DNA from: Nitrososphaerota archaeon
GTDB taxonomy: Archaea > Thermoproteota > Nitrososphaeria > Nitrososphaerales > Gagatemarchaeaceae
NCBI GenBank assembly: GCA_027886975.1
Contig: JAPCJK010000001.1
Location: forward strand, 12,892-76,891
Length of the DNA stretch: 64,000 nt
Reading direction: 5' to 3'
The position numbers were made by a program, and so were the translations under genes. Each line of letters begins with the position of its first letter. Within the stretch, counting starts at the first letter, position 1. Shown here one piece after another: positions 17,307 to 54,359 of the stretch. The notes beneath the pieces are model-generated. The model did no database searches, was not told the origin of the DNA, and worked only from the letters and a program-made list of their open reading frames with translations.

Positions 17307-20057
17307 TTATTGCTTGATTGTAACGTAGTACATGTACGTCACTCCCTGTGCTGGTACGACTATGATTCCGAAGTTGAGGTTGCCAGAATTATCAATCCAG
17401 GAATAGACGGTGTTCGCCACGCTCCCCGGCCCGTAAGACTGTAGAAGGCTGGCCACTTTGTCCACGGTCTGGCTCGCTCCCGCCGCACTGAGTGATATGC
17501 TAGCCACGTTCACATATACCGTAGGGTTGACGGACGTGGCGTTGACCAGACGGTAGCCCTTCGACGCGATGAGCGCGTCTACCTGATGGACCAATGCCGT
17601 CCTGCTCGGAGTGGCTCCTGTCGTGGAATTGCTGGTTCCGAGGTTGTTGAAGGCAGCCGTGGCGTCGGCGCCCACGCCTACGACCCCTGTGGACGGGTTG
17701 ATTGCAGTCATGAAAGGTAGTTGCGTGACCACCCCGCTCGAGCCTGGGTTAGTGTAGACTGCAACGAAATAGGTGAGCGCTCCCCCGACAGAGTAAAGCA
17801 GGTATGAGCCGAACCTGTTGTTCGGAAGGAGTGTCAGCTGGGTCCGTACCTGCTGGTTGGTGGTGAGCGCGTTCTCCGCCGCCGTGGGGCCGATGATGAG
17901 CGCCGACTGTGAGGGATTCTGATAAAGATAGATTTGCCCGAGTCTGTCTCCGCCGTAGGCTATGTAGAGGGCCCCGAGGTTCTTGCTGACTACCCCTTGG
18001 TACTGGGCGAGCTGCAGGCCCACGAAGTAGGTCTTGTTCCCGACGGCGAATGGAATGTATTGTACGTTGCTGGCGCCAGCTCTTTCGTAGAACTGAGTGC
18101 CCGACCTGAAGATGAACGGGTCGTTCACGTGATAGATGAAGTTGTAGTCCAGCTGTCCAGGCACAGTGGGAGATCCTAGTAACTGCTCGGGGTACCTGAG
18201 CTGGGGGATAAGCCAAGAAGGAGGAGCCTTCCAGGTGCTATAGTAGCCCTGGTAGAACTTCGTGATGAAGTCCGTGCTGTTCACGCCCGTAGGCGATAGA
18301 AGGTTGGACACGGTGTACCCTTGCAAAGAGCCGTCCTGGATGTTGACCAGGACCACGCCGAAGAACCTGAGGTAGGGGCTGTCCGCGAAGCCCGATTGCA
18401 GTGGGTAGTCTATGTAGACCTGGACGGTGTAGTAGAGGTTCTTCCCATCGGACACGATGTATGCTGAGGGGTCCATCGTAAGACCGGGGATCAGCACGTC
18501 CCCGACCCTGGAGAAGATGTTCCTGTTCCACTGCATGTCGATCGGCTGGCCTGAGAAGGCGAAACCGAGCTGTCCCTCTGCGAATGTGAACCACATCGAC
18601 TTCTGCCAGCCGCTCAATGTATAGTCGACTGTTTTGGAATACGAAACGTTCTGAATCTCATTGTACCCGGGGACGTGGACGTAGACGTTTTGATTGAATC
18701 CATCCCCTTCTCCGTAGTAGATGGGAGGCTCTGACCTGATCCCGAAGGCGTTGGTTGGCGGTATCACCGACCCGTTGTGGGTGTTGATTACCAGGACCTT
18801 TGCAGCGTGGGTATAGATTAAATGCTGGCTGATCCAGTCTGCCGACGGGAAGACAGGGGTGGTGGGCGAAACCCAGTACTCCGTGCCGTTGTAGAAGACT
18901 ATCTCCGAGCTGGCAAGGCCCATCCAGTTGTACGCGCCGATTTCTTTCGTGTTCGTGACGGACGCCGCTTGCTGGTCCCATTGCCTGACGAGGTCAAGCG
19001 TCGTCCTGGGGTTGCTTGTTGGAAGGGTGGTGATATTGTTGACGTGGATGCTGTCGAGGCCCGCCGACCATCGGGTCACCGTGATCTGCTTCTGGGTCTG
19101 GGGGTACCATTGGTACGCGAGGAAGTTGTTGTTCCAGTTGAAGTAGTAAAATGCCCCAGCAGCCACCTGGGCTAGGAGGAGTATTGCGAGGAGCACAGCG
19201 AGCCCCTTGAAGATCCTGAGTCTCGTCGCGGTAATGTCCCTCCTAGAGAGAGCAACGATTCCCAGAAGAGAGAGAAGCAGGGCGCTCCAGACGATCCCGT
19301 AGACGTAAGGGGTTGCTATGTTCATCAGCCAGTAGGGAGCGCCCAAGATTGTCTCGAATAGGATAAGCGTAACCAGAGTGAGGAGGTTACCGAGCCAGAC
19401 GCCGCTCCGCCGAGTCGCGAGGTTGGCGAGGAGACGGATGAGGACCCTGAATCCGGCGATCAGGAGAAAAGCGGACAGGATGTAGACAATGACCGCGTAC
19501 TGAACGGTCAGAGTAGGCATTAGTCCGATTAGTCCAGAACCAGACGCCGGGGCCAACGGAAGGGTGAAGACCCTCGGCACATCGCTCCAGCTCCCCAAGC
19601 CCATGGACATCATCTGAACCGGGTTCATGATGGGGCCGAGGAATGGGAAGGCACCGAAGGTCGCGAAGGTGTAGAAGCCTATCGCCCACTTGACTGTCTG
19701 CCAAAGGCCCCAAAGCCAGATGTTCATCTTCTCGCTGGGCCTGTTCTCCCCCTCTGCCTCGTAGGGCCGCATAAGTCTGTAGACCACGGTGCCGAGCTTA
19801 CGGAGGTCGCTCCGCCCTGGTCGAGGATTGACAAGAAGGAGAGAGAACAGAGCAGCTGCGATGAAGGTGTTTTCGTGGTAGAATGTTATGCCGAACCAAT
19901 CGAGGCCGGCCTTCGCCGAAAATACGGACTCGGCGATGGCCCATCGGAGGAAGACCCAGGCGAGTGCCAGGACGACCGCGACAGCCAGAAGTGCGACGAC
20001 CAGGACGGCGAGCCATTTGGAGAGCCTTAGACGGTCGTTTCCCGCTTCTGATTCCAT
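17307..20057 (-). CDS. UPF0182 family large membrane protein
   Basis: 916 aa. About 7 N-terminal TM helices and a large extracytoplasmic domain. 'DWISQHLIYTH', 'EPPIYYGEG', 'LRYPEQLL' and 'SYLLYSVGGALTYFVAVY' parallel the UPF0182 motifs 'DWINRHTVYTH', 'PRIYFG', 'HLRYPEDLF' and 'LLYVEPVY' (recalled from memory). Confidence 0.68.
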   Translation of the reverse strand: MESEAGNDRLRLSKWLAVLVVALLAVAVVLALAWVFLRWAIAESVFSAKAGLDWFGITFYHENTFIAAALFSLLLVNPRPGRSDLRKLGTVVYRLMRPYEAEGENRPSEKMNIWLWGLWQTVKWAIGFYTFATFGAFPFLGPIMNPVQMMSMGLGSWSDVPRVFTLPLAPASGSGLIGLMPTLTVQYAVIVYILSAFLLIAGFRVLIRLLANLATRRSGVWLGNLLTLVTLILFETILGAPYWLMNIATPYVYGIVWSALLLSLLGIVALSRRDITATRLRIFKGLAVLLAILLLAQVAAGAFYYFNWNNNFLAYQWYPQTQKQITVTRWSAGLDSIHVNNITTLPTSNPRTTLDLVRQWDQQAASVTNTKEIGAYNWMGLASSEIVFYNGTEYWVSPTTPVFPSADWISQHLIYTHAAKVLVINTHNGSVIPPTNAFGIRSEPPIYYGEGDGFNQNVYVHVPGYNEIQNVSYSKTVDYTLSGWQKSMWFTFAEGQLGFAFSGQPIDMQWNRNIFSRVGDVLIPGLTMDPSAYIVSDGKNLYYTVQVYIDYPLQSGFADSPYLRFFGVVLVNIQDGSLQGYTVSNLLSPTGVNSTDFITKFYQGYYSTWKAPPSWLIPQLRYPEQLLGSPTVPGQLDYNFIYHVNDPFIFRSGTQFYERAGASNVQYIPFAVGNKTYFVGLQLAQYQGVVSKNLGALYIAYGGDRLGQIYLYQNPSQSALIIGPTAAENALTTNQQVRTQLTLLPNNRFGSYLLYSVGGALTYFVAVYTNPGSSGVVTQLPFMTAINPSTGVVGVGADATAAFNNLGTSNSTTGATPSRTALVHQVDALIASKGYRLVNATSVNPTVYVNVASISLSAAGASQTVDKVASLLQSYGPGSVANTVYSWIDNSGNLNFGIIVVPAQGVTYMYYVTIKQ

Positions 20058-20366: not shown

Positions 20367-22505
20367 ATGAAGCATTCGGAATCGCCTCCGCCAATATCCA
20401 AGGATAAGGCACGCCGACTGGGAGTTGGTGGCCGCTCAAGGCGCTGGATGTATCTTGTCTCTTTTCTTTTGGTAGGTTCCGTGGTTGCGATGGGAGGCGC
20501 GTATGGCGTCCTCAGTCACACTGGATCTTCAACATCAACAACTTCATCTTTTACAAACACGTCTTCATCTTCAATCAGTACTTCGATTAGTACCTCGATT
20601 AGCTCTTCGTCGGGTCTTCAAGCAACCTCGGTAAGACTGGTCTGTTCTCCGTCGCCTCAGATTGTGGGTGCTGGTTCCGATTGCATTGCCACGGTCAGCA
20701 ACTCTCCGGATGCTAGTCACGGGGCCGCCCCCTCCGGTAAGGTCGGGTTCACCAGTAGGTCAGAAGGGGGGTACGGAGCGATTACGTGTGCTCCTACAAC
20801 CGGTACTTTGGTCTGCAGCACGTTGTACACCCCTACGCTTGGTGCCGAAGGCAATCACACCTTGACCGCAATCTACGCCGGTGACTCGGGTCATCGTGGG
20901 AGCTCGGCAAGTATCGCCCTACAAGTCTCTAAGCGCCCGTCCTCCATCAACGTAAACTGCTCCCCCGAGGCCGTGCCCGTGAACACCAGGACCACGTGCA
21001 CTGCCATCGTCTCAGACACGGGTGGCGGAACTACTTTGGTGCCGTCGGGGGCCGTAGAATTCGCTGGGACCTCTTCGGGCAGCTTCAGCGTATCAGGATG
21101 TGCGCTCTCAGGAGGTTCTTGCTCTGTTGATTTTTTCCCGTTTCCTGGCAAGGAGGGACCAATTTCACTCTCCGTCGCCTATGGCGGCGACTCAGACCAC
21201 GTCCCAAGCAAGGGGCTAGGGACCAATGCTCTTACCGCGGTCGCGAGGCCGACGAGTGCCTCGGTCTCGTGTGTCCCTTCAATTGCTACGAGCGGATCTC
21301 AGGTATCGTGTAGAGCCACCGTCGAAGATTCTTTGAGCTCTGGCGTCCCGTTGGTACCGAAGGGAGATTTCAACTTCAGCACTTCTGGTAGCGGGAACTT
21401 TAGTCCGGCAACATGCTCGCTGGCACCTCTGACCTCACACAGCGCGGCCTGCCTAGTTCACTACGCCCCGGCTCTCGGCAACACAGCCTCCTCCCAACGA
21501 ATCGGGGGCAAGTACGGGGGAGATCCAGACCATTCCTCAGCATCTGCCACCACTTTCACCTTGCAGGTGAGGGCTCGGGCTGCCTCTCTATCGCTATCCT
21601 GCGCGAGCGCCTTGACGACGGTGAACACTCCTCTCAGCTGCACCGCCACGGTCTCGGATGCTTCCGGAACGTCTCCTCAAGCCCCAACCGGGGGAGTCAA
21701 CTTCGCGTCGACTGGTGCGGGGAGCTTCAGCCCAGCCACGTGCACTGTCCACTCTGGGACCTGCTCGTCCACCTATACCCCCCGGGCTGGAAGTGAGGGG
21801 AGCGCCACGATTACGTCAGTATACTCAGGGGACCCGAACTATGGGCCTAGCTCGGCGTCAATCGTAATCAGCGTGGATCAACGACTCAGCTCCACGACTC
21901 TCGATTGCGCCCCGTCCACGGTTCCAGTCAACGCTCCCACAATCTGCACCGCGACCGTTTCGGACTCCACCGGGGTGGGGACTTCGATAACCCCGTCGGG
22001 GCATGTGGAGTTCAGCTCCCGAGGCGGGTCCTTTGGCTCCGGAGATACTTGTACTCTCTCTGCGGGCGCATGTTCGGTGAAGTTTACTCCATCTCCAGGG
22101 AGCGAGGGAGCCTTATCTGTGGGCGCAAGCTACTCGGGAGACGTCGACCACTACGGCGGGACCGCAGCGCCAGTGGGCGTGACTGCGACAACGAGATCTG
22201 TAACCGTTTCAGTTGTCTGCGCTCCATCGTCAATCCTCCCCGCACAGAGCACAACCTGTACCGTGACTGTAACCGACTCCGACGGCGGGTCCCCCATCAT
22301 GCCGACAGGCAAAGTTCATTTCTCCGCAAACGTGAGCGGAACCTTTGCGCCCTCCACGGATTGCATTCTCTCAGGCGGGACCTGCTCAGTGTCCTACAGC
22401 ACCCTAGCCATCGGCACCCCGACCACTGTAGCCATCACAGCGACCTATGCGGGAGACACAGACCACAGTGGAGACTCGGATGTGGCGTACGTCCAGTTTG
22501 CTTAA
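20367..22505 (+). CDS. Surface protein: N-terminal anchor, Ser/Thr stalk, six tandem Ig-like (Big_3_5-type) domains
   Basis: 712 aa. Each repeat has the pattern C.P....V......C.ATV.D......P.G.V.F.....G.F....C.L..G.C.V.(F/Y).P..G.EG......Y.GD..H. Confidence 0.78.
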   Translation: MKHSESPPPISKDKARRLGVGGRSRRWMYLVSFLLVGSVVAMGGAYGVLSHTGSSTSTTSSFTNTSSSSISTSISTSISSSSGLQATSVRLVCSPSPQIVGAGSDCIATVSNSPDASHGAAPSGKVGFTSRSEGGYGAITCAPTTGTLVCSTLYTPTLGAEGNHTLTAIYAGDSGHRGSSASIALQVSKRPSSINVNCSPEAVPVNTRTTCTAIVSDTGGGTTLVPSGAVEFAGTSSGSFSVSGCALSGGSCSVDFFPFPGKEGPISLSVAYGGDSDHVPSKGLGTNALTAVARPTSASVSCVPSIATSGSQVSCRATVEDSLSSGVPLVPKGDFNFSTSGSGNFSPATCSLAPLTSHSAACLVHYAPALGNTASSQRIGGKYGGDPDHSSASATTFTLQVRARAASLSLSCASALTTVNTPLSCTATVSDASGTSPQAPTGGVNFASTGAGSFSPATCTVHSGTCSSTYTPRAGSEGSATITSVYSGDPNYGPSSASIVISVDQRLSSTTLDCAPSTVPVNAPTICTATVSDSTGVGTSITPSGHVEFSSRGGSFGSGDTCTLSAGACSVKFTPSPGSEGALSVGASYSGDVDHYGGTAAPVGVTATTRSVTVSVVCAPSSILPAQSTTCTVTVTDSDGGSPIMPTGKVHFSANVSGTFAPSTDCILSGGTCSVSYSTLAIGTPTTVAITATYAGDTDHSGDSDVAYVQFA
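20628..22502 (+). repeat. Six tandem coding repeats of about 100-106 codons each (Ig-like domains)
   Basis: Protein-level periodicity from residue 88 to the C-terminus. The repeats have diverged at the nucleotide level. The Ser/Thr stalk also holds a short 12-nt tandem, AGTAC(T/C)TCGATT x2, near 20577-20600. Confidence 0.75.
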
Positions 22506-22651: not shown

Positions 22652-23056
22652 ATGCCCGGGAAAGGAACCAAAGCAGACCCCTGGGTCCTGAAGACTCCTC
22701 CTGGAACGTCGGAGTTCAAGGCATACCGAGACGAATCCTTGAATCCCCAAGCCCTGGTCTGCTGGGTCGGAAAGACACAGCTCAGCTACGACCTCCGCTG
22801 TTTGAACGACCTCCATGCCGCCCTCAAGAAACATGGCGACTGGATGGAACTCGGGAGTGCCGACGAGCAAAAGCCCGCCCGGGAGGGGACCGTCGAGGCC
22901 TGGGGGCGGTCGGCGAAGAATCCTGTGGGGGGCTGGTATGGTCTGAAGAAAGGCCTGCGCGGGAGGTTCGCCATGTACGTGCCTCCGGTCATGGAGGCCC
23001 TGAAGCTCGCAGAAGTCGAGCACAACCCGAAGAACAACCGGATGCGCGCTCTCTGA
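22652..23056 (+). CDS. Conserved protein of unknown function ('GGWYGLKKG.RGRF' family)
   Basis: 134 aa. 'DPWVLKTPPGTSEF..YRDE', 'GTVEAWGRSAKNPVGGWYGLKKGLRGRFAMYVPP' and 'NNRMRA' resemble a widespread bacterial DUF recalled from memory. It has its own TATA-like 'cttataa' about 32 nt upstream. Confidence 0.6.
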   Translation: MPGKGTKADPWVLKTPPGTSEFKAYRDESLNPQALVCWVGKTQLSYDLRCLNDLHAALKKHGDWMELGSADEQKPAREGTVEAWGRSAKNPVGGWYGLKKGLRGRFAMYVPPVMEALKLAEVEHNPKNNRMRAL

Positions 23057-23093: not shown

Positions 23094-23101
23094 TTAATTA
23101 A
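23094..23101 (+). promoter_or_regulatory. TATA-like box (ttaattaa) for the Ku-ligase-PolX operon
   Basis: A/T octamer about 30 nt upstream of TTG 23127. No SD-like purine tract lies between them, which fits a leaderless or short-leader archaeal promoter. Confidence 0.4.
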
Positions 23102-23126
23102 CTTACAGGCAGGTTTTGGACAGAAA

Positions 23127-23972
23127 TTGCCCAAGGGAGACATCTTCTCTGAGGTTGAGAAGCAGGCCGACAGCGCGGCCGTCTCAAAGGCTTCGTGGCG
23201 AGGGGTCCTCAGCCTGGACATCCCGACCCTGGGCCTCGGGGCCGTTGAGTACCACTTGAGAGCCGCGAAGGCCCACGGGGACCTCCAGCCTGTGAAGGTG
23301 ACGAAGTTGGACAAGAAGACGGGAAAGGAGGTCGTCAGCAGGGAGGTTCCGAGGATTTACAGGTACAAGGAGGGCCCTGCCGGGGAGAGGCTTGACATGC
23401 AGGAGGTAACTCCCGAGGAGGCAAAGAAGTTCGTCAGGTACAAGGGGGACTTTCCGATCACAGTTAAGACAGAGAAGAGGTACTTCCTGAAATACGAATT
23501 GGAATTCGAGGGGAAATTTATCGAGATCCCGCTGAGTCAGACATACGACAAGCAGGAGGGAGAGGAGGTCGAGCCCTTCGACAGGACAAAGAGGATCGAA
23601 GTAGAGAAGGATGGGTTTGTGCCGTTGGAGAGGGTTTCAGAGTACAAGTTCAAGGAAGTCTATCAGCTCGCCCCAGACACCGACAAAAAGGTCGGGGAGA
23701 CCGTTTCGAGAGTTACGCAGCTGGCCAGGTACCTGACGGAGAAACAGATGGCTCTCGTGGCGTTCTTCTCCTGGGGAAGGGGGTACAACTTCTACACGAG
23801 CGTCGTCTATCCCTACGAGAGGAAGGACGGACGCCTCTGGCTTCTGATGGGCATGAGTGAGGGAATACTGAAGCTCGACGATGCGTGGGCCCTTATTGAG
23901 GAAAAGGGTTCCGCCAGGCTGCCGGCCGTCCCAGTAGCTAAGAGGAAGGCCAAAGCCGTCATCTCGAAGTAG
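23127..23972 (+). CDS. ku: Ku-like DNA end-binding protein (highly divergent)
   Basis: 281 aa. 'SWRGVLSLDIPTLGLGAVEYHL' compares with bacterial Ku 'WKGSISFGLVNIPVKLY'. Later 'RIEVEKDGFVPLERVSEYKFKEVYQLAPD' and 'LARYLTEKQMALVAFFSWGRG...' follow the Ku core order 'I.I..FV....I.P.Y....Y.L.P' and 'AY.LL...L.....A.A....R'. The C-terminal tail is basic. It is directly coupled to a DNA ligase gene. Confidence 0.55.
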   Translation: MPKGDIFSEVEKQADSAAVSKASWRGVLSLDIPTLGLGAVEYHLRAAKAHGDLQPVKVTKLDKKTGKEVVSREVPRIYRYKEGPAGERLDMQEVTPEEAKKFVRYKGDFPITVKTEKRYFLKYELEFEGKFIEIPLSQTYDKQEGEEVEPFDRTKRIEVEKDGFVPLERVSEYKFKEVYQLAPDTDKKVGETVSRVTQLARYLTEKQMALVAFFSWGRGYNFYTSVVYPYERKDGRLWLLMGMSEGILKLDDAWALIEEKGSARLPAVPVAKRKAKAVISK

Positions 23973-23974
23973 AG

Positions 23975-24808
23975 ATGAGCGACGAGCTCCCGAACTACGT
24001 TCAGGATAACTATTCGAAGGCTGTCAAAATCGACCTGGGGACATGGCTCCTTGCCAACCCGCTCCCCGCTCTGTGCGAGCCGAAATTCGACGGGATCAGA
24101 GTGTTTCTCTTCAAGAGCGGGGACAAGCTTGTACTGTCGAGCAAGCACGGCGGGGTCTACACGCCGAAAGGGAGTCCAACTGTCTTCTCCAGGGTTCCCG
24201 AGTTCTTGCATGCACCCCACAAGATGATCCTCGACGGGGAATATGTAGCGAGAGAATCCAAAGGGTTGTTCCTTTTCGACGTCCTTCAGGTCGACAACAG
24301 GGACCTCAGGGCAAAGACCCTGACTGAAAGGAAGAAGGTCCTGAAAGAGATACTGAAGGGAACGGGGCTAGAGGTTCCCTACACCCTTGCCAAAACAACC
24401 GACAGCATCATCGCTGTACGCAACGAGATGGTGGAGAAAGGCAGGGAAGGAATCGTCGTCAAGAATCCCCTGTCGAAGTACGGCCAGAGGAACTCGTGGC
24501 TCAAACTGAAGCGTTTCGACACGGTCGATGTCTTCGTGATGAAGACGGTGGAGACTCAAGAGATGAAGAGGACTGGGATTGCAAGGTCATGGTCTGTGGG
24601 TGTCTATGACGATAACGGTCAAGTGGTGGAGCTGGGCGACGTAGGGTCCATGGTGGAAAGGGTAGACCCGAGACAGGTGAAGAAGGGGTCAGTCATCGAG
24701 GTGAGGTTCCAGGAGCTCACGAAGGACAAGAAGCTGCGCGCGCCGTTCATCGTAAGGATAAGGCATGACAAGACGCCGGACGAATGCCTGTACTCTCAGT
24801 TCGGATAG
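23975..24808 (+). CDS. Minimal ATP-dependent DNA ligase (adenylation + OB domains only)
   Basis: 277 aa. Motif I 'KFDGIR' (Lys codon 24083-24085), III 'ILDGEYV', IIIa 'LFLFDVL', IV 'EGIVVKN', V 'WLKLKR', VI 'LRAPFIVRIRHDK'. The ATG lies 2 nt after the Ku stop. Confidence 0.88.
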   Translation: MSDELPNYVQDNYSKAVKIDLGTWLLANPLPALCEPKFDGIRVFLFKSGDKLVLSSKHGGVYTPKGSPTVFSRVPEFLHAPHKMILDGEYVARESKGLFLFDVLQVDNRDLRAKTLTERKKVLKEILKGTGLEVPYTLAKTTDSIIAVRNEMVEKGREGIVVKNPLSKYGQRNSWLKLKRFDTVDVFVMKTVETQEMKRTGIARSWSVGVYDDNGQVVELGDVGSMVERVDPRQVKKGSVIEVRFQELTKDKKLRAPFIVRIRHDKTPDECLYSQFG

Positions 24809-24817
24809 GGGATTGAT

Positions 24818-25357
24818 GTGTCATACAAGAAAGACATCAAGCTGGAAGAGGCCGAAAAGATCGGACTAGACTTTCAGGAGAAGACGAAAGACCTCTACAA
24901 GAAATACCTACTCGCAGGAAGTATCAGGAGAAAGCAGCCCATCGTTCACGATATTGACTTCGCCGTGATTCCCAAAGGCATGAGTTTTGGTGCGTGGAAG
25001 GACAAGGTCTCGGAGAGGGTCCAGGAAATCGGAGGGATGGTAGTCACATTCGGCGAAGTCATCTCGAACTTCCGATACCGGGGGGTTCAGGTCAACCTGT
25101 TCATCTGTCTGAGCGACGGCGCCTGGGGAGTAACGCAGATGTGGGCAACAGGGCCGAAGGGTCACACCATTGGGATGACAATCAAGGCGAGAGACAAGGG
25201 ACTAATCATAAACTCCAAAGGGCTCTGGACTAGGGACGAACCGCCTAAGCTGATTCCGACGAGGACGGAGCAAGAAGTCGGAAGGATCCTTGACTGGAAG
25301 TACAAGCCGCCTGAAACGAGGGGAAAAGGCGGGAAACAAAAGCCATCTCCTCTGTGA
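24818..25357 (+). CDS. polX: Mini family-X DNA polymerase / Pol-beta-like nucleotidyltransferase (palm + thumb only)
   Basis: 179 aa, GTG start. 'LLAGSIRRKQPIVHDIDFAVIP' is the GS-x-RR...D-x-D NTase motif. 'WATGPKGHTIGMTIKARDKGLIINSKGLW...IPTRTEQEVGRILDWKYKPPETR' matches the PolX thumb and C-terminus. The size and layout resemble the 174-aa ASFV Pol X. Confidence 0.7.
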   Translation: MSYKKDIKLEEAEKIGLDFQEKTKDLYKKYLLAGSIRRKQPIVHDIDFAVIPKGMSFGAWKDKVSERVQEIGGMVVTFGEVISNFRYRGVQVNLFICLSDGAWGVTQMWATGPKGHTIGMTIKARDKGLIINSKGLWTRDEPPKLIPTRTEQEVGRILDWKYKPPETRGKGGKQKPSPL

Positions 25358-25375: not shown

Positions 25376-26092
25376 TTAATCGGCGTCCAATTTTTCTGCT
25401 AGTCTCTGGGCCAGGACGGCGTTTTCCCCGGTTTCATCGTGGCGGAGATAGACGTAGGTTTCCTCTGAACCCTTGGCAGTCTCGGTTATTTTCGGGACCC
25501 AGGCATCGACTGTCTTCGCATCGTAGAAATCTTTCCTTAGCCTGAAGTAAGCGGTCTTTCCGGTGACCTGGAGGACTGGTTTCATCTCTTCGGTCTCGGC
25601 GATGCAGAACCCCGCCCCATTCGCCTCGAGCAGCTGGTATGTGGAATCCTTGAGCCACGACTCGTGCCTGAATTCGAAAACCCTGTTCTCGATTCCTCCT
25701 GTTGCGCTTAGGAATTCGCCAAGGAGCTTGAGATCAAGCTTCGAGAATGGAGGCAACTGGAACAAGACCGGACCCCGCCTGGGTCCCAGGGAATCTAGCA
25801 CCTTCGACAGTTTCTCGGCTGCTTCCGATGAGCCCTTTCCCAGCTTCAGGATATGAGTTATCAGGCGGGGCGCTTTGAAAGAGAACCTGAACTTCTCGTT
25901 CGTCTTCCCAGACCAACTCTTCACCATGGCCGCGCTGGGTTGAGCGTAGAAGGAGCTGTTGATCTCCACGCTTCCCAGGTGTTGCGAATAGTAGGCTAGA
26001 AACTCGTCGCTCTTTGTGCCCTCGGGGTAGAACTTCCCCTTCCAGCGGGGATAGCTGAAGCCGGAGACCCCCACAAATGTGTTCTTGGTCAA
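25376..26092 (-). CDS. DUF72 (YecE/UPF0759) family protein
   Basis: 238 aa. 'VGVSGFSYPRWKGKFYP', 'LAYYSQHLGSVEINSSFY' and 'FRFSFKAPRLITH' are typical DUF72 motifs. TTG start. Confidence 0.85.
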   Translation of the reverse strand: MTKNTFVGVSGFSYPRWKGKFYPEGTKSDEFLAYYSQHLGSVEINSSFYAQPSAAMVKSWSGKTNEKFRFSFKAPRLITHILKLGKGSSEAAEKLSKVLDSLGPRRGPVLFQLPPFSKLDLKLLGEFLSATGGIENRVFEFRHESWLKDSTYQLLEANGAGFCIAETEEMKPVLQVTGKTAYFRLRKDFYDAKTVDAWVPKITETAKGSEETYVYLRHDETGENAVLAQRLAEKLDAD

Positions 26093-53120: not shown

Positions 53121-54002
53121 CTAATTGCAGAAAGTGTCGAGAGATGGAAAATCGTTTCTTTTCGGCTTCCACTCAGTTGAGCCGTCGGTAGATTCCAGCC
53201 CGTATCGCTTCACTAAGTCTGACAGCCTCGCTACAACGTCGTCTCGCCCGACGAGTGCCTCGGCTGTGCTCATCCGCGCGGCTTCTTCGAACATCTTCTT
53301 CGATTCCTCATACCCGGTGAACCTCAGGATGCCGAACGAGACAGACGAAACGCCTGCGTCGCTCAGGTCTTCGAAGAGCTGGTCGAGGTCGACCATCATG
53401 ATCCCGGGGATCACCGGCGCCAGCGAGACCCAGGTCCGTATCCCCGCTTCGGCCAACTTCCTCAGGGTGACTATTCTCCTCTCAAGCGGAGGGACTCCCG
53501 GTTCAAACTGCCTGACCGGGACGGTCGTTATTGACATCCCTACCTTGACCCAGTCGAACTTCCTGAGCAACTCCAGATCCCTGAGGACCAGCGGTGACCT
53601 TGTCAGGATGGAGACCGGAAAGCCGTTCCTAAGGAGTGATTCGAGGCACCGTCGGGTGATACCATACTTCGCCTCGACCGGCTGATAGGGGTCTGACGCG
53701 CTCGAGAGGAACACCTGGTCTTTCCTTATTCCTCTAAGTTCCCTTTCGAGGACTTCGGGGGCATTGACCTTCACATCGACGTATCTCCCCCACTTTCTCT
53801 CGTCGTGGGTCAGTGAAGGGGCGTAGCAGTACGCGCACCCATGGATGCATCCCTTGTACAGGTTGGCCGTGTACCCGGTTGACGATCCGAACTCCAGCCG
53901 GTGGAGGAGGGTGGTGCACCTGGTCTCTCTGATTGAAATCCCGTTTCCATCTGAATCCGGCAGTGTCGACGGAGGTTGGATTGAGATAAGCGTCATGCGC
54001 AT
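53121..54002 (-). CDS. Radical SAM protein, SplB / 'DNA repair photolyase' COG1533-like
   Basis: 'NLYKGCIHGCAYCYA' (CxxxCxxC), 'FLSSASDPYQP' and 'PVSILTRSPLVLRD'. I chose Met 54002. The track ORF runs to 54083. Confidence 0.72.
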   Translation of the reverse strand: MRMTLISIQPPSTLPDSDGNGISIRETRCTTLLHRLEFGSSTGYTANLYKGCIHGCAYCYAPSLTHDERKWGRYVDVKVNAPEVLERELRGIRKDQVFLSSASDPYQPVEAKYGITRRCLESLLRNGFPVSILTRSPLVLRDLELLRKFDWVKVGMSITTVPVRQFEPGVPPLERRIVTLRKLAEAGIRTWVSLAPVIPGIMMVDLDQLFEDLSDAGVSSVSFGILRFTGYEESKKMFEEAARMSTAEALVGRDDVVARLSDLVKRYGLESTDGSTEWKPKRNDFPSLDTFCN

Positions 54003-54359
54003 TTGGTTCAATGCCCGCAGGAATATTAGCAGTAGGTGCGAGGAGCATCGGTCCAGGACAGAGTAGCCTGAAAGTATTCCCAAGCTGCGGCGATTTGCCG
54101 TAGGTTAGTTTGGAACTAGCTTGTTTGAGTAACGGAAACGTAAGAAGTCGTACCACTACCCCAATTCCGCGACATGGTCATGGGCATGGTCGCTGTAGTT
54201 ACAGCACCAGGATATTCTGGGAGAAAACTGATAGGGTTGTCCGTCGCGGTGTTGACGCCATTCGTGGGACCACTGCAGCTCAGCGGCACCGTGGCGCTTC
54301 CTGGAGCCAGCGTGGGCGACCTAACTAGGTTCGAGATCGAAAAACGGCAATAAACCGCT

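Follow-up and report, generated by a model that had tools for sequence, protein, structure and literature searches.

Non-homologous end-joining (NHEJ) in prokaryotes is, in its textbook form, performed by Ku and LigD, which comprises a ligase, a polymerase of the archaeo-eukaryotic primase (AEP) type and a phosphoesterase (PE); family-X polymerases are the eukaryotic solution. Pol X of African swine fever virus (ASFV), together with the ASFV ligase, forms a viral base-excision repair (BER) pair. Here, we analysed a 64,000-nt stretch of DNA (the window; forward strand of contig JAPCJK010000001.1, positions 12,892-76,891, assembly GCA_027886975.1) from a Nitrososphaerota archaeon of the Gagatemarchaeaceae. 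The window harbours an operon of three genes, which are predicted to encode a divergent Ku-family protein (ORF1), a minimal ATP-dependent DNA ligase (ORF2) and a mini family-X polymerase-like protein (mini-PolX, ORF3). All coordinates below are positions within the window.

Full-length prokaryotic PolX proteins co-occur with NHEJ genes, and PolX has been found beside LigD in Alphaproteobacteria and beside an ATP ligase in Methanomicrobia (PMC9226535). For Thaumarchaeota, the published mentions of NHEJ components are generic: OrthoDB lists Ku for a few of them (PMC11936186), and 'NHEJ components' were noted in some ammonia-oxidising clades (PMC13006922). When searching the literature, we found no description of a Ku-ligase-mini-PolX operon or of a prokaryotic mini-PolX family. 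The original prediction for this locus knew of no characterisation of this arrangement, and our search agrees with this for the operon itself; the link between PolX and NHEJ, on the other hand, had already been published for full-length PolX. We judge the operon to be a real variant of prokaryotic end-joining, and apparently an undescribed one.

Our favoured reading, to which we give slightly less than an even chance, is that this is a chromosomal end-joining operon of non-ammonia-oxidising and related soil Nitrososphaerales, in which mini-PolX serves as an active gap-filling polymerase. That Ku and ligase form a break-repair module of some kind is probable.

A Ku-ligase-PolX gene order conserved in Nitrososphaerales

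The three genes are located on the + strand. The gene for ORF1 (281 aa) spans positions 23127-23972, with a TTG start codon and a TAG stop codon at 23970-23972. It is followed after 2 nt by the gene for ORF2 (277 aa; 23975-24808, ATG start, stop at 24806-24808) and, after another 9 nt, by that for ORF3 (179 aa; 24818-25357, GTG start). In the orthologous loci the gaps are short as well, with medians of about 18 nt between Ku and ligase and about 10 nt between ligase and PolX. A TATA-like promoter box, TTAATTAA, is found on the same strand at 23094-23101, about 26-33 nt 5′ of the Ku start codon. Nearly all orthologous loci carry a TTAATTA or TTAAATA box at an equivalent distance (25-35 nt 5′ of the Ku start), and their Ku genes start at the same point, with either ATG or TTG, the protein opening with M-P-K-K/G-D-I-F. 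The shared start position and the box at a fixed distance together fix both the Ku start and the promoter. The spacing would suit an archaeal promoter whose transcripts have little or no 5′ leader. Downstream, the only run of five T residues on the + strand between 22600 and 25700 is located at 25391-25395, 34 nt past the PolX stop. This oligo-T tract is a candidate archaeal terminator of the operon, although a weakly supported one, as chance alone would place about 0.8 such runs within the operon. Based on the short spacers here and in the orthologues, the conserved box and the lone downstream T tract, the Ku, ligase and PolX genes are predicted to form one transcription unit, expressed from one promoter. 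All starts, stops and spacers of the three co-directional genes, as well as the TATA-like box, were found exactly where the original prediction had placed them.

To describe the conservation of the operon, one genome per GTDB species was scanned. This gave 49 loci, all from Nitrososphaerales/Thaumarchaeota metagenome-assembled genomes (MAGs), including Ca. Gagatemarchaeum and the isolates of the acidic-soil Gagatemarchaeaceae study. The order Ku-ligase-PolX is kept in about 40 of these 49 species-level loci, while the flanking genes differ. Across the trio loci, the identity to our proteins ranges from 52 to 98%; that of Ku drops from 98% to about 60%, and those of the ligase and PolX fall in parallel. 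Since the order is preserved over some 40 species despite changing flanks, the arrangement is not due to chance, which indicates selection for linkage. As far as can be judged from these genomes, the three-gene linkage is a clade-specific and strongly maintained invention, and the co-occurrence in relatives that had been expected is thus conserved.

Genes of the operon are also found outside this order. Two distant loci harbour a Ku and ligase pair without PolX (L047, 2093-3835; L048, 9971-11686), with 55-60% identity for Ku and 43-46% for the ligase; the Ku gene of L047 is split by a frameshift. A sister clade of thaumarchaeal mini-PolX proteins (L056, 6001-6567; L057 and L058, 6001-6522) is 46% identical to ORF3 and stands alone, with no Ku or ligase gene nearby. 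Both findings weigh against our favoured reading, as they imply that PolX is not obligatory for either partner. In addition, the genome that contains trio locus L039 encodes a lone second Ku paralogue (L042, 9926-10849; 57% identity), situated among membrane-protein genes and with no ligase, PolX or other repair partner nearby.

The variable flanks could also be explained if the trio were cargo of a mobile element or provirus and served that element instead of chromosomal repair, for example by closing a linear genome into a circle or shielding it, in the manner of mycobacteriophage Ku. In line with this, the Ku and ligase pair of L048 adjoins DNA-methylase-like, AAA ATPase-like and VWA-like ORFs, a mobile-element-like context as judged from reading the ORFs only, and relatives of mini-PolX occur on large viral contigs. 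However, these viral loci have no Ku and ligase nearby, and no close relative was found when IMG/VR was searched with the close PolX family. Moreover, the annotated neighbourhoods (±10 kb of a 98%-identical contig and of a 74%-identical contig) contain no integrase, tRNA or capsid genes, and the GC content of the operon matches that of the window. Finally, the identities of the three proteins fall together over about 40 species, as under vertical inheritance. We therefore regard a mobile origin as highly improbable.

ORF1, a likely divergent member of the Ku family

ORF1 matches the Pfam Ku family PF02735 with 32.1 bits (cut-off 25; E 1.3e-7), which is above the curated threshold. Among its relatives, all 90 that were tested match Ku and no other family, with a best E value of 1.5e-9, and several of them were independently named 'Ku protein' by the NCBI pipeline. 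An NCBI protein with 100% identity to ORF1 itself comes from a MAG labelled 'Thaumarchaeota archaeon'. The W-R-G-x-L-S-L opening, on which the original Ku assignment was based together with the order of the later segments, is present as W24-R25-G26-V27-L28-S29-L30.

The AlphaFold2 (AF2) monomer model of ORF1 has a predicted local distance difference test (pLDDT) score of 60.5 and is too loose for global superposition. This is not surprising, since Ku is an obligate intertwined dimer. When this model was compared with 350,542 chains of the PDB using Foldseek, the top 39 matches were all Ku (probability 0.9-1.0), among them the Ku homodimers of Mycobacterium tuberculosis and Bacillus subtilis and human Ku70/80. 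Using hhalign, the ORF1 family aligned co-linearly with the M. tuberculosis and B. subtilis Ku proteins. The score was weak (E 0.014, low probability) because the profiles are shallow. The alignment pairs WRGVLSL of ORF1 with WTGSIAF, and FVPLERVSEYKFKEVYQLAPD with FVPAADVDPMMFDRSYFLEPD, which are the two best-known Ku motifs. Compared to bacterial Ku, about 40-50 aa are inserted into the core of ORF1, which also has a conserved clade-specific N-terminal helix (DIFSEVEKQ) and a basic C-terminal tail (LPAVPVAKKKPKV-ISK).

Several results count against the Ku assignment. ORF1 reaches only 17.9 bits against the NCBIfam equivalog model of bacterial Ku, TIGR02772, for which the cut-off is 150, and the ORF1-family profile retrieved neither the M. 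tuberculosis nor the B. subtilis Ku, nor any other Ku, from the PDB sequences. The fold matches are local only, with E values of at least 2e-3 and template modelling (TM) scores of 0.23-0.29 on a model with a pLDDT of 60. The assignment leans mainly on one Pfam profile at 32 bits. With this modest score, the low hhalign probability and the poor model, ORF1 could owe its match to chance and be a beta-rich, DNA-binding protein unrelated to Ku, leaving an operon of ligase, PolX and a partner of another kind. This is very improbable, as such a protein would have to account for the match of every tested family member to Ku and to no other family, for 39 Ku chains at the top of the fold search, for a co-linear alignment that pairs the two best-known Ku motifs and for the independent naming by the NCBI pipeline. 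That ORF1 belongs to the Ku family is very likely, and from its family membership it would be expected to form the bridge-and-pillar ring of Ku.

ORF2, a minimal ATP-dependent DNA ligase

As had been predicted, all six motifs of covalent nucleotidyltransferase ligases could be located within the 277 aa of ORF2: I (K37FDG), III (LD87GE), IIIa (F101DVL), IV (E158GIVVK), V (WLK177LK) and VI (R261IRHDK). Across 44 orthologues, motifs I, III, IIIa and VI do not vary. The protein matches PF01068 with 79 bits, and its OB domain gives borderline matches to PF14743 and PF04679. It thus consists of a nucleotidyltransferase and an OB domain and lacks a DNA-binding domain. Matches in the PDB were to archaeal Lig1-type ligases, Lig4 and the ligase domain of M. 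tuberculosis LigD. Among the NCBIfam models the best one was the LigD ligase domain TIGR02779. Its score of 103.9 bits is far below the cut-off of 227.75, and ORF2 is therefore placed in a separate small-ligase lineage and not among the LigD equivalogs. With every catalytic motif in place, the prediction that ORF2 is a complete minimal ATP-dependent DNA ligase is well supported.

ORF3, a mini family-X protein with a D-D-N triad

ORF3 matches the Pol-beta thumb family PF14791 with 39.7 bits (cut-off 25). A phmmer search of the PDB matched it to Thermus PolX in the palm and thumb (E 6e-6) and to ASFV Pol X from end to end (E ~1e-3). The AF2 model is of high quality (pLDDT 90, predicted TM score 0.85), and Foldseek matched it to the catalytic cores of Pol beta and Pol lambda (E ~1e-11, TM 0.70-0.77) and, in BFVD, to giant-virus PolX and ASFV O174L. 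The family-X palm residues G34-S35, D45 and D47 are invariant, and a thumb domain is present. The sequence begins at the palm, and only palm and thumb were matched; no 8-kDa deoxyribose phosphate (dRP)-lyase, HhH or PHP exonuclease domain was recognised in it. This agrees with the description of ORF3 as a Pol-beta-like protein of palm and thumb only.

The C-terminal tail of ORF3 (25319-25354) is disordered and basic (R-G-K-G-x-K...) and carries an aromatic or hydrophobic residue near its end (F-H, F-E-L, x-W or P-L across the orthologues). Together with the DIFSEVEKQ helix and the basic tail of Ku, it may represent a candidate docking motif, loosely reminiscent of the Ku-binding motifs of eukaryotes.

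The metal-binding triad of ORF3 is D45-D47-N93. In two independent alignments the third carboxylate (D256 of Pol beta, D100 of ASFV Pol X) aligns to N93, and the motif around it reads 'QVNL' instead of 'QVDL' in Thermus and 'QLDL' in ASFV. Like G34-S35, R37-R38, D45 and D47, N93 is invariant in 121 close homologues. The T-G motif and the C-terminal E/P/R residues of PolX do not vary either. In Pol beta, D256 is needed for efficient catalysis, so that an Asn at the equivalent position speaks against polymerase activity of ORF3. We searched the literature for the effect of an Asn at this position of Pol beta and found nothing. Moreover, PolX proteins lacking a residue of the acidic triad have been classified as noncanonical, and their representatives had no polymerase activity and acted via their PHP exonuclease (PMC9226535, Prostova et al. 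2022). This also counts against an active ORF3, although the explanation is not simply transferable, because ORF3 has no PHP domain.

The D-D-N triad in the wider mini-PolX family

Using an exhaustive HMMER search over 1.84 billion representative proteins, we obtained 1103 relatives of ORF3, most of them 150-180 aa in length. As far as could be found, such mini-PolX proteins constitute a large, apparently undescribed family. Among the top 150 of the 1103 relatives, the triad is D-D-D in 63, D-D-N in 47, D-D-E in 12, D-E-E in five and D-D-Q in four, with a few other variants. We compared 43 full-length D-D-N representatives with less than 50% mutual identity to 79 proteins with Asp or Glu at the third position (D/E proteins). 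The two groups show the same degree of conservation in the G-S-x-R-R motif, both Asp residues, the T-G motif and the C-terminal E/P/R residues. In a neighbour-joining tree, the triad state switched at least 19 times, compared to a mean of 43 for shuffled labels. One specific replacement, arising repeatedly while the rest of the site stays intact, is the signature of a selected variant, and judged from these sequences the D-D-N triad looks selected rather than decayed. In noncanonical full-length PolX proteins, conversely, 302 different variants of the triad have been counted (PMC9226535).

A compensating carboxylate was sought in the D-D-N proteins, and only a partial trend was found, at ORF3 position 40 (24935-24937). 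This residue, two past R38, is Glu in 51% of the D-D-N proteins and Lys or Arg in 67% of the D/E proteins. In ORF3 itself it is Gln, and in most of the ORF3 clade it is Glu. The trend may reflect charge compensation.

The invariant Asn could mean that mini-PolX is part of a break-repair module without being a polymerase, and acts instead as an accessory factor with no catalysis or a different one, for example as a lyase or as an end-bridging scaffold that binds gaps and 5′-phosphates and positions the ligase. We consider this unlikely, though less so than the other alternatives discussed here. It would fit the full-length PolX proteins with altered triads, which lose polymerase activity yet stay associated with NHEJ (PMC9226535). 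It would also fit a ligase that has no DNA-binding domain of its own and a PolX tail that resembles a docking motif. However, the inactive full-length proteins keep a working PHP exonuclease, and ORF3 has no such domain. In addition, the residues that bind the nucleotide and metal B (GS-x-RR, D45 and D47) are invariant and as conserved in D-D-N as in D-D-D/E proteins, and the substitution is specifically Asn and not random, which argues for retained nucleotide chemistry. From this pattern of conservation, nucleotide binding by ORF3 is very probably retained, and for polymerase activity the chances appear roughly even.

A DUF72 gene and other neighbours of the operon

Directly downstream of the operon and convergent with the PolX gene, we found a gene on the - strand (25376-26092) encoding a DUF72 protein, a TM1631-like TIM-barrel. 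It is assigned to PF01904 on the 98%-identical contig and matches TM1631 (PDB 1vpq) with an E value of 5e-22. In a hidden Markov model (HMM) search, a DUF72 gene was found no more than 1 kb away from the trio in 15 of 40 loci (the window and loci L002, L005-L010, L029 and L034-L039), whereas the flanks of 22 of the 40 loci lack DUF72. A higher count of 28 of 40, obtained by neighbour clustering, was rejected as it was inflated by alternative-frame ORFs. Four arrangements occur: downstream convergent, downstream co-directional, upstream divergent and upstream co-directional. That the adjacency survived several rearrangements suggests a functional link.

Endonuclease IV enzymes strip 3′ blocking groups, and in LigD it is the PE domain that cleans 3′ ends. 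We hypothesise that DUF72 belongs to the end-joining system and cleans ends, which would make it a candidate accessory end-processing nuclease. In accordance with this, purely computational predictions describe TM1631 as a repair nuclease of the endonuclease IV type (PMC3828134, PMC4939058).

No LigD-type AEP primase-polymerase and no LigD phosphoesterase (PF13298-type) was found in the operon, in the annotated neighbourhoods of the two related contigs or among 20 further ORFs of the window, a scan that covers part of the window ORFs and is not genome-wide. For these parts, the earlier statement that no AEP or phosphoesterase gene is nearby was borne out, but it overlooked the adjacent predicted endonuclease-IV-like DUF72 gene. 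Two things had been missed in total: the Asn at the third catalytic Asp of PolX and the recurrent DUF72 neighbour.

Directly beyond DUF72, the window contains a gene for the 3-methyladenine DNA glycosylase I Tag (PF03352; 26117-26584, - strand), so that five genes of DNA-repair type cluster locally; the linkage of Tag is confined to the closest relatives. Given these neighbours, the operon could serve mainly the repair of single-strand damage, namely abasic sites, nicks and small gaps, by ASFV-like short-patch BER, and not that of double-strand breaks, with Ku providing abasic-site/dRP-lyase activity. The architecture of ORF3 is indeed closest to the ASFV-type minimal PolX, DUF72 is a frequent neighbour, Tag lies beside it in the window and in the closest relative, and bacterial Ku proteins are reported to process abasic sites (PMC4245934). 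On the other hand, members of the Ku family are rings that bind DNA ends, and elsewhere the partners conserved beside them in genomes are ligases of end-joining. Furthermore, Tag is linked only in the closest relatives, and more than half of the loci have flanks without DUF72. We consider a dedicated BER role improbable; roles in BER and in end-joining are not mutually exclusive.

Upstream of the operon are located genes for a 916-aa protein without Pfam match (17307-20057, - strand) and a 712-aa Ser/Thr-rich protein with Ig-like (Big_3_5) repeats (20367-22505, + strand), both of which are conserved in the closest relative. Between these and the operon, directly upstream of the latter, lies a gene for a DUF6855 protein (22652-23056, + strand; 230 bits), which is found in the closest relatives only and of which the 98%-identical contig has a truncated version of 97 aa. 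Further away, a radical-SAM protein (53124-54083, - strand) shows sub-threshold similarity to spore-photoproduct lyase (PF20903, 22.7 bits) and is possibly related to DNA damage. A reading of the locus as a defence system was dropped, as PADLOC gave no defence-system match.

A possible end-joining mechanism

Under the end-joining reading, a homodimer of the divergent Ku would thread onto the DNA ends and hold them, as expected from its family membership. Mini-PolX, which like ASFV Pol X possesses only a palm and a nucleotide-selecting thumb, might then bind the aligned or gapped junction and add one or a few nucleotides; this step is uncertain because the third metal-binding carboxylate is Asn. 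Subsequently, the 277-aa ATP ligase would seal the nick, a step that is well supported by its sequence. In about one-third of the lineages, the neighbouring DUF72 protein may, more speculatively, clean blocked 3′ ends or abasic sites.

The predicted part list, consisting of Ku, an ATP ligase and a family-X polymerase, matches that of eukaryotic NHEJ and not the Ku and LigD of bacteria or the corresponding set of Methanocella. For the original prediction of a eukaryote-like end-joining operon, this means that the three family assignments, including the membership of ORF3 in family X, and the conserved operon hold, while the active, gap-filling polymerase is not secure, given a D-D-N triad that is invariant in the clade.

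In a more far-reaching version, the operon would be a complete and self-sufficient archaeal end-joining pathway, D-D-N a genuine catalytic variant of a large mini-PolX family of archaea, bacteria and viruses, and DUF72 a 3′-end-cleaning nuclease. We regard this version as rather doubtful. If true, it would represent a TACK counterpart of the Ku/Lig4/Pol lambda-mu design and provide a first function for DUF72 and for the mini-PolX family.

With a conserved archaeal operon in which Ku and a ligase are firmly coupled to a family-X fold, prokaryotes too would have evolved this pairing or kept it. Uncultured Thaumarchaeota that abound in acidic soils carry the module widely, which gives it a bearing on how such slow growers survive DNA breaks. 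With 281, 277 and 179 aa, the three-protein system is small enough for reconstitution, which makes both a Pol-beta fold with Asn at the third metal site and the function of DUF72 testable. If active, such a compact end-joining kit could serve genome engineering. The most interesting by-products of the analysis are the D-D-N/D-D-D mini-PolX family and the DUF72 linkage, which is a lead to the function of DUF72.

Comparison with known systems

As in the archaeo-prokaryotic NHEJ of Methanocella paludicola and bacteria, the Ku gene lies in an operon with that of a small ATP ligase, whose best ligase model is of the LigD type. The proteins are stand-alone and not fused, as in Methanocella, where Ku, ligase, AEP polymerase and PE are encoded by separate genes. 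In contrast to these systems, the polymerase slot is taken here by a family-X protein with a Pol-beta fold instead of an AEP, the LigD PE was not found locally, and both Ku (17.9 vs 150 bits) and the ligase (104 vs 228 bits) are far below the equivalog thresholds.

With eukaryotic NHEJ (Ku70/80, ligase IV and Pol lambda or mu) the operon shares Ku, an ATP ligase and the family-X fold. The likeness is one of the part list, and no specific sequence affinity to the eukaryotic proteins emerged. Ku is here presumably a homodimer without vWA and SAP domains, the ligase lacks DNA-binding and BRCT domains, there is no XRCC4 or XLF, and PolX, whose triad is D-D-N, has neither BRCT nor 8-kDa nor HhH domains.

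The 174-aa ASFV Pol X resembles ORF3 in size, in having palm and thumb only, in aligning over the full length, in fold and in having an ATP ligase as partner. It differs in its canonical triad (D49-D51-D100) and in partnering an AP endonuclease and not Ku, and the identity between the two is about 20-25%.

Finally, the noncanonical prokaryotic PolX proteins (PMC9226535) share with ORF3 the altered triad and the genomic association with NHEJ genes. They are about 570 aa in length, derive their activity from a PHP exonuclease, and show hundreds of triad variants as well as palm deletions. ORF3, in contrast, is a protein of 179 aa without a nuclease domain, in which a single Asn substitution is combined with an intact nucleotide-binding motif.

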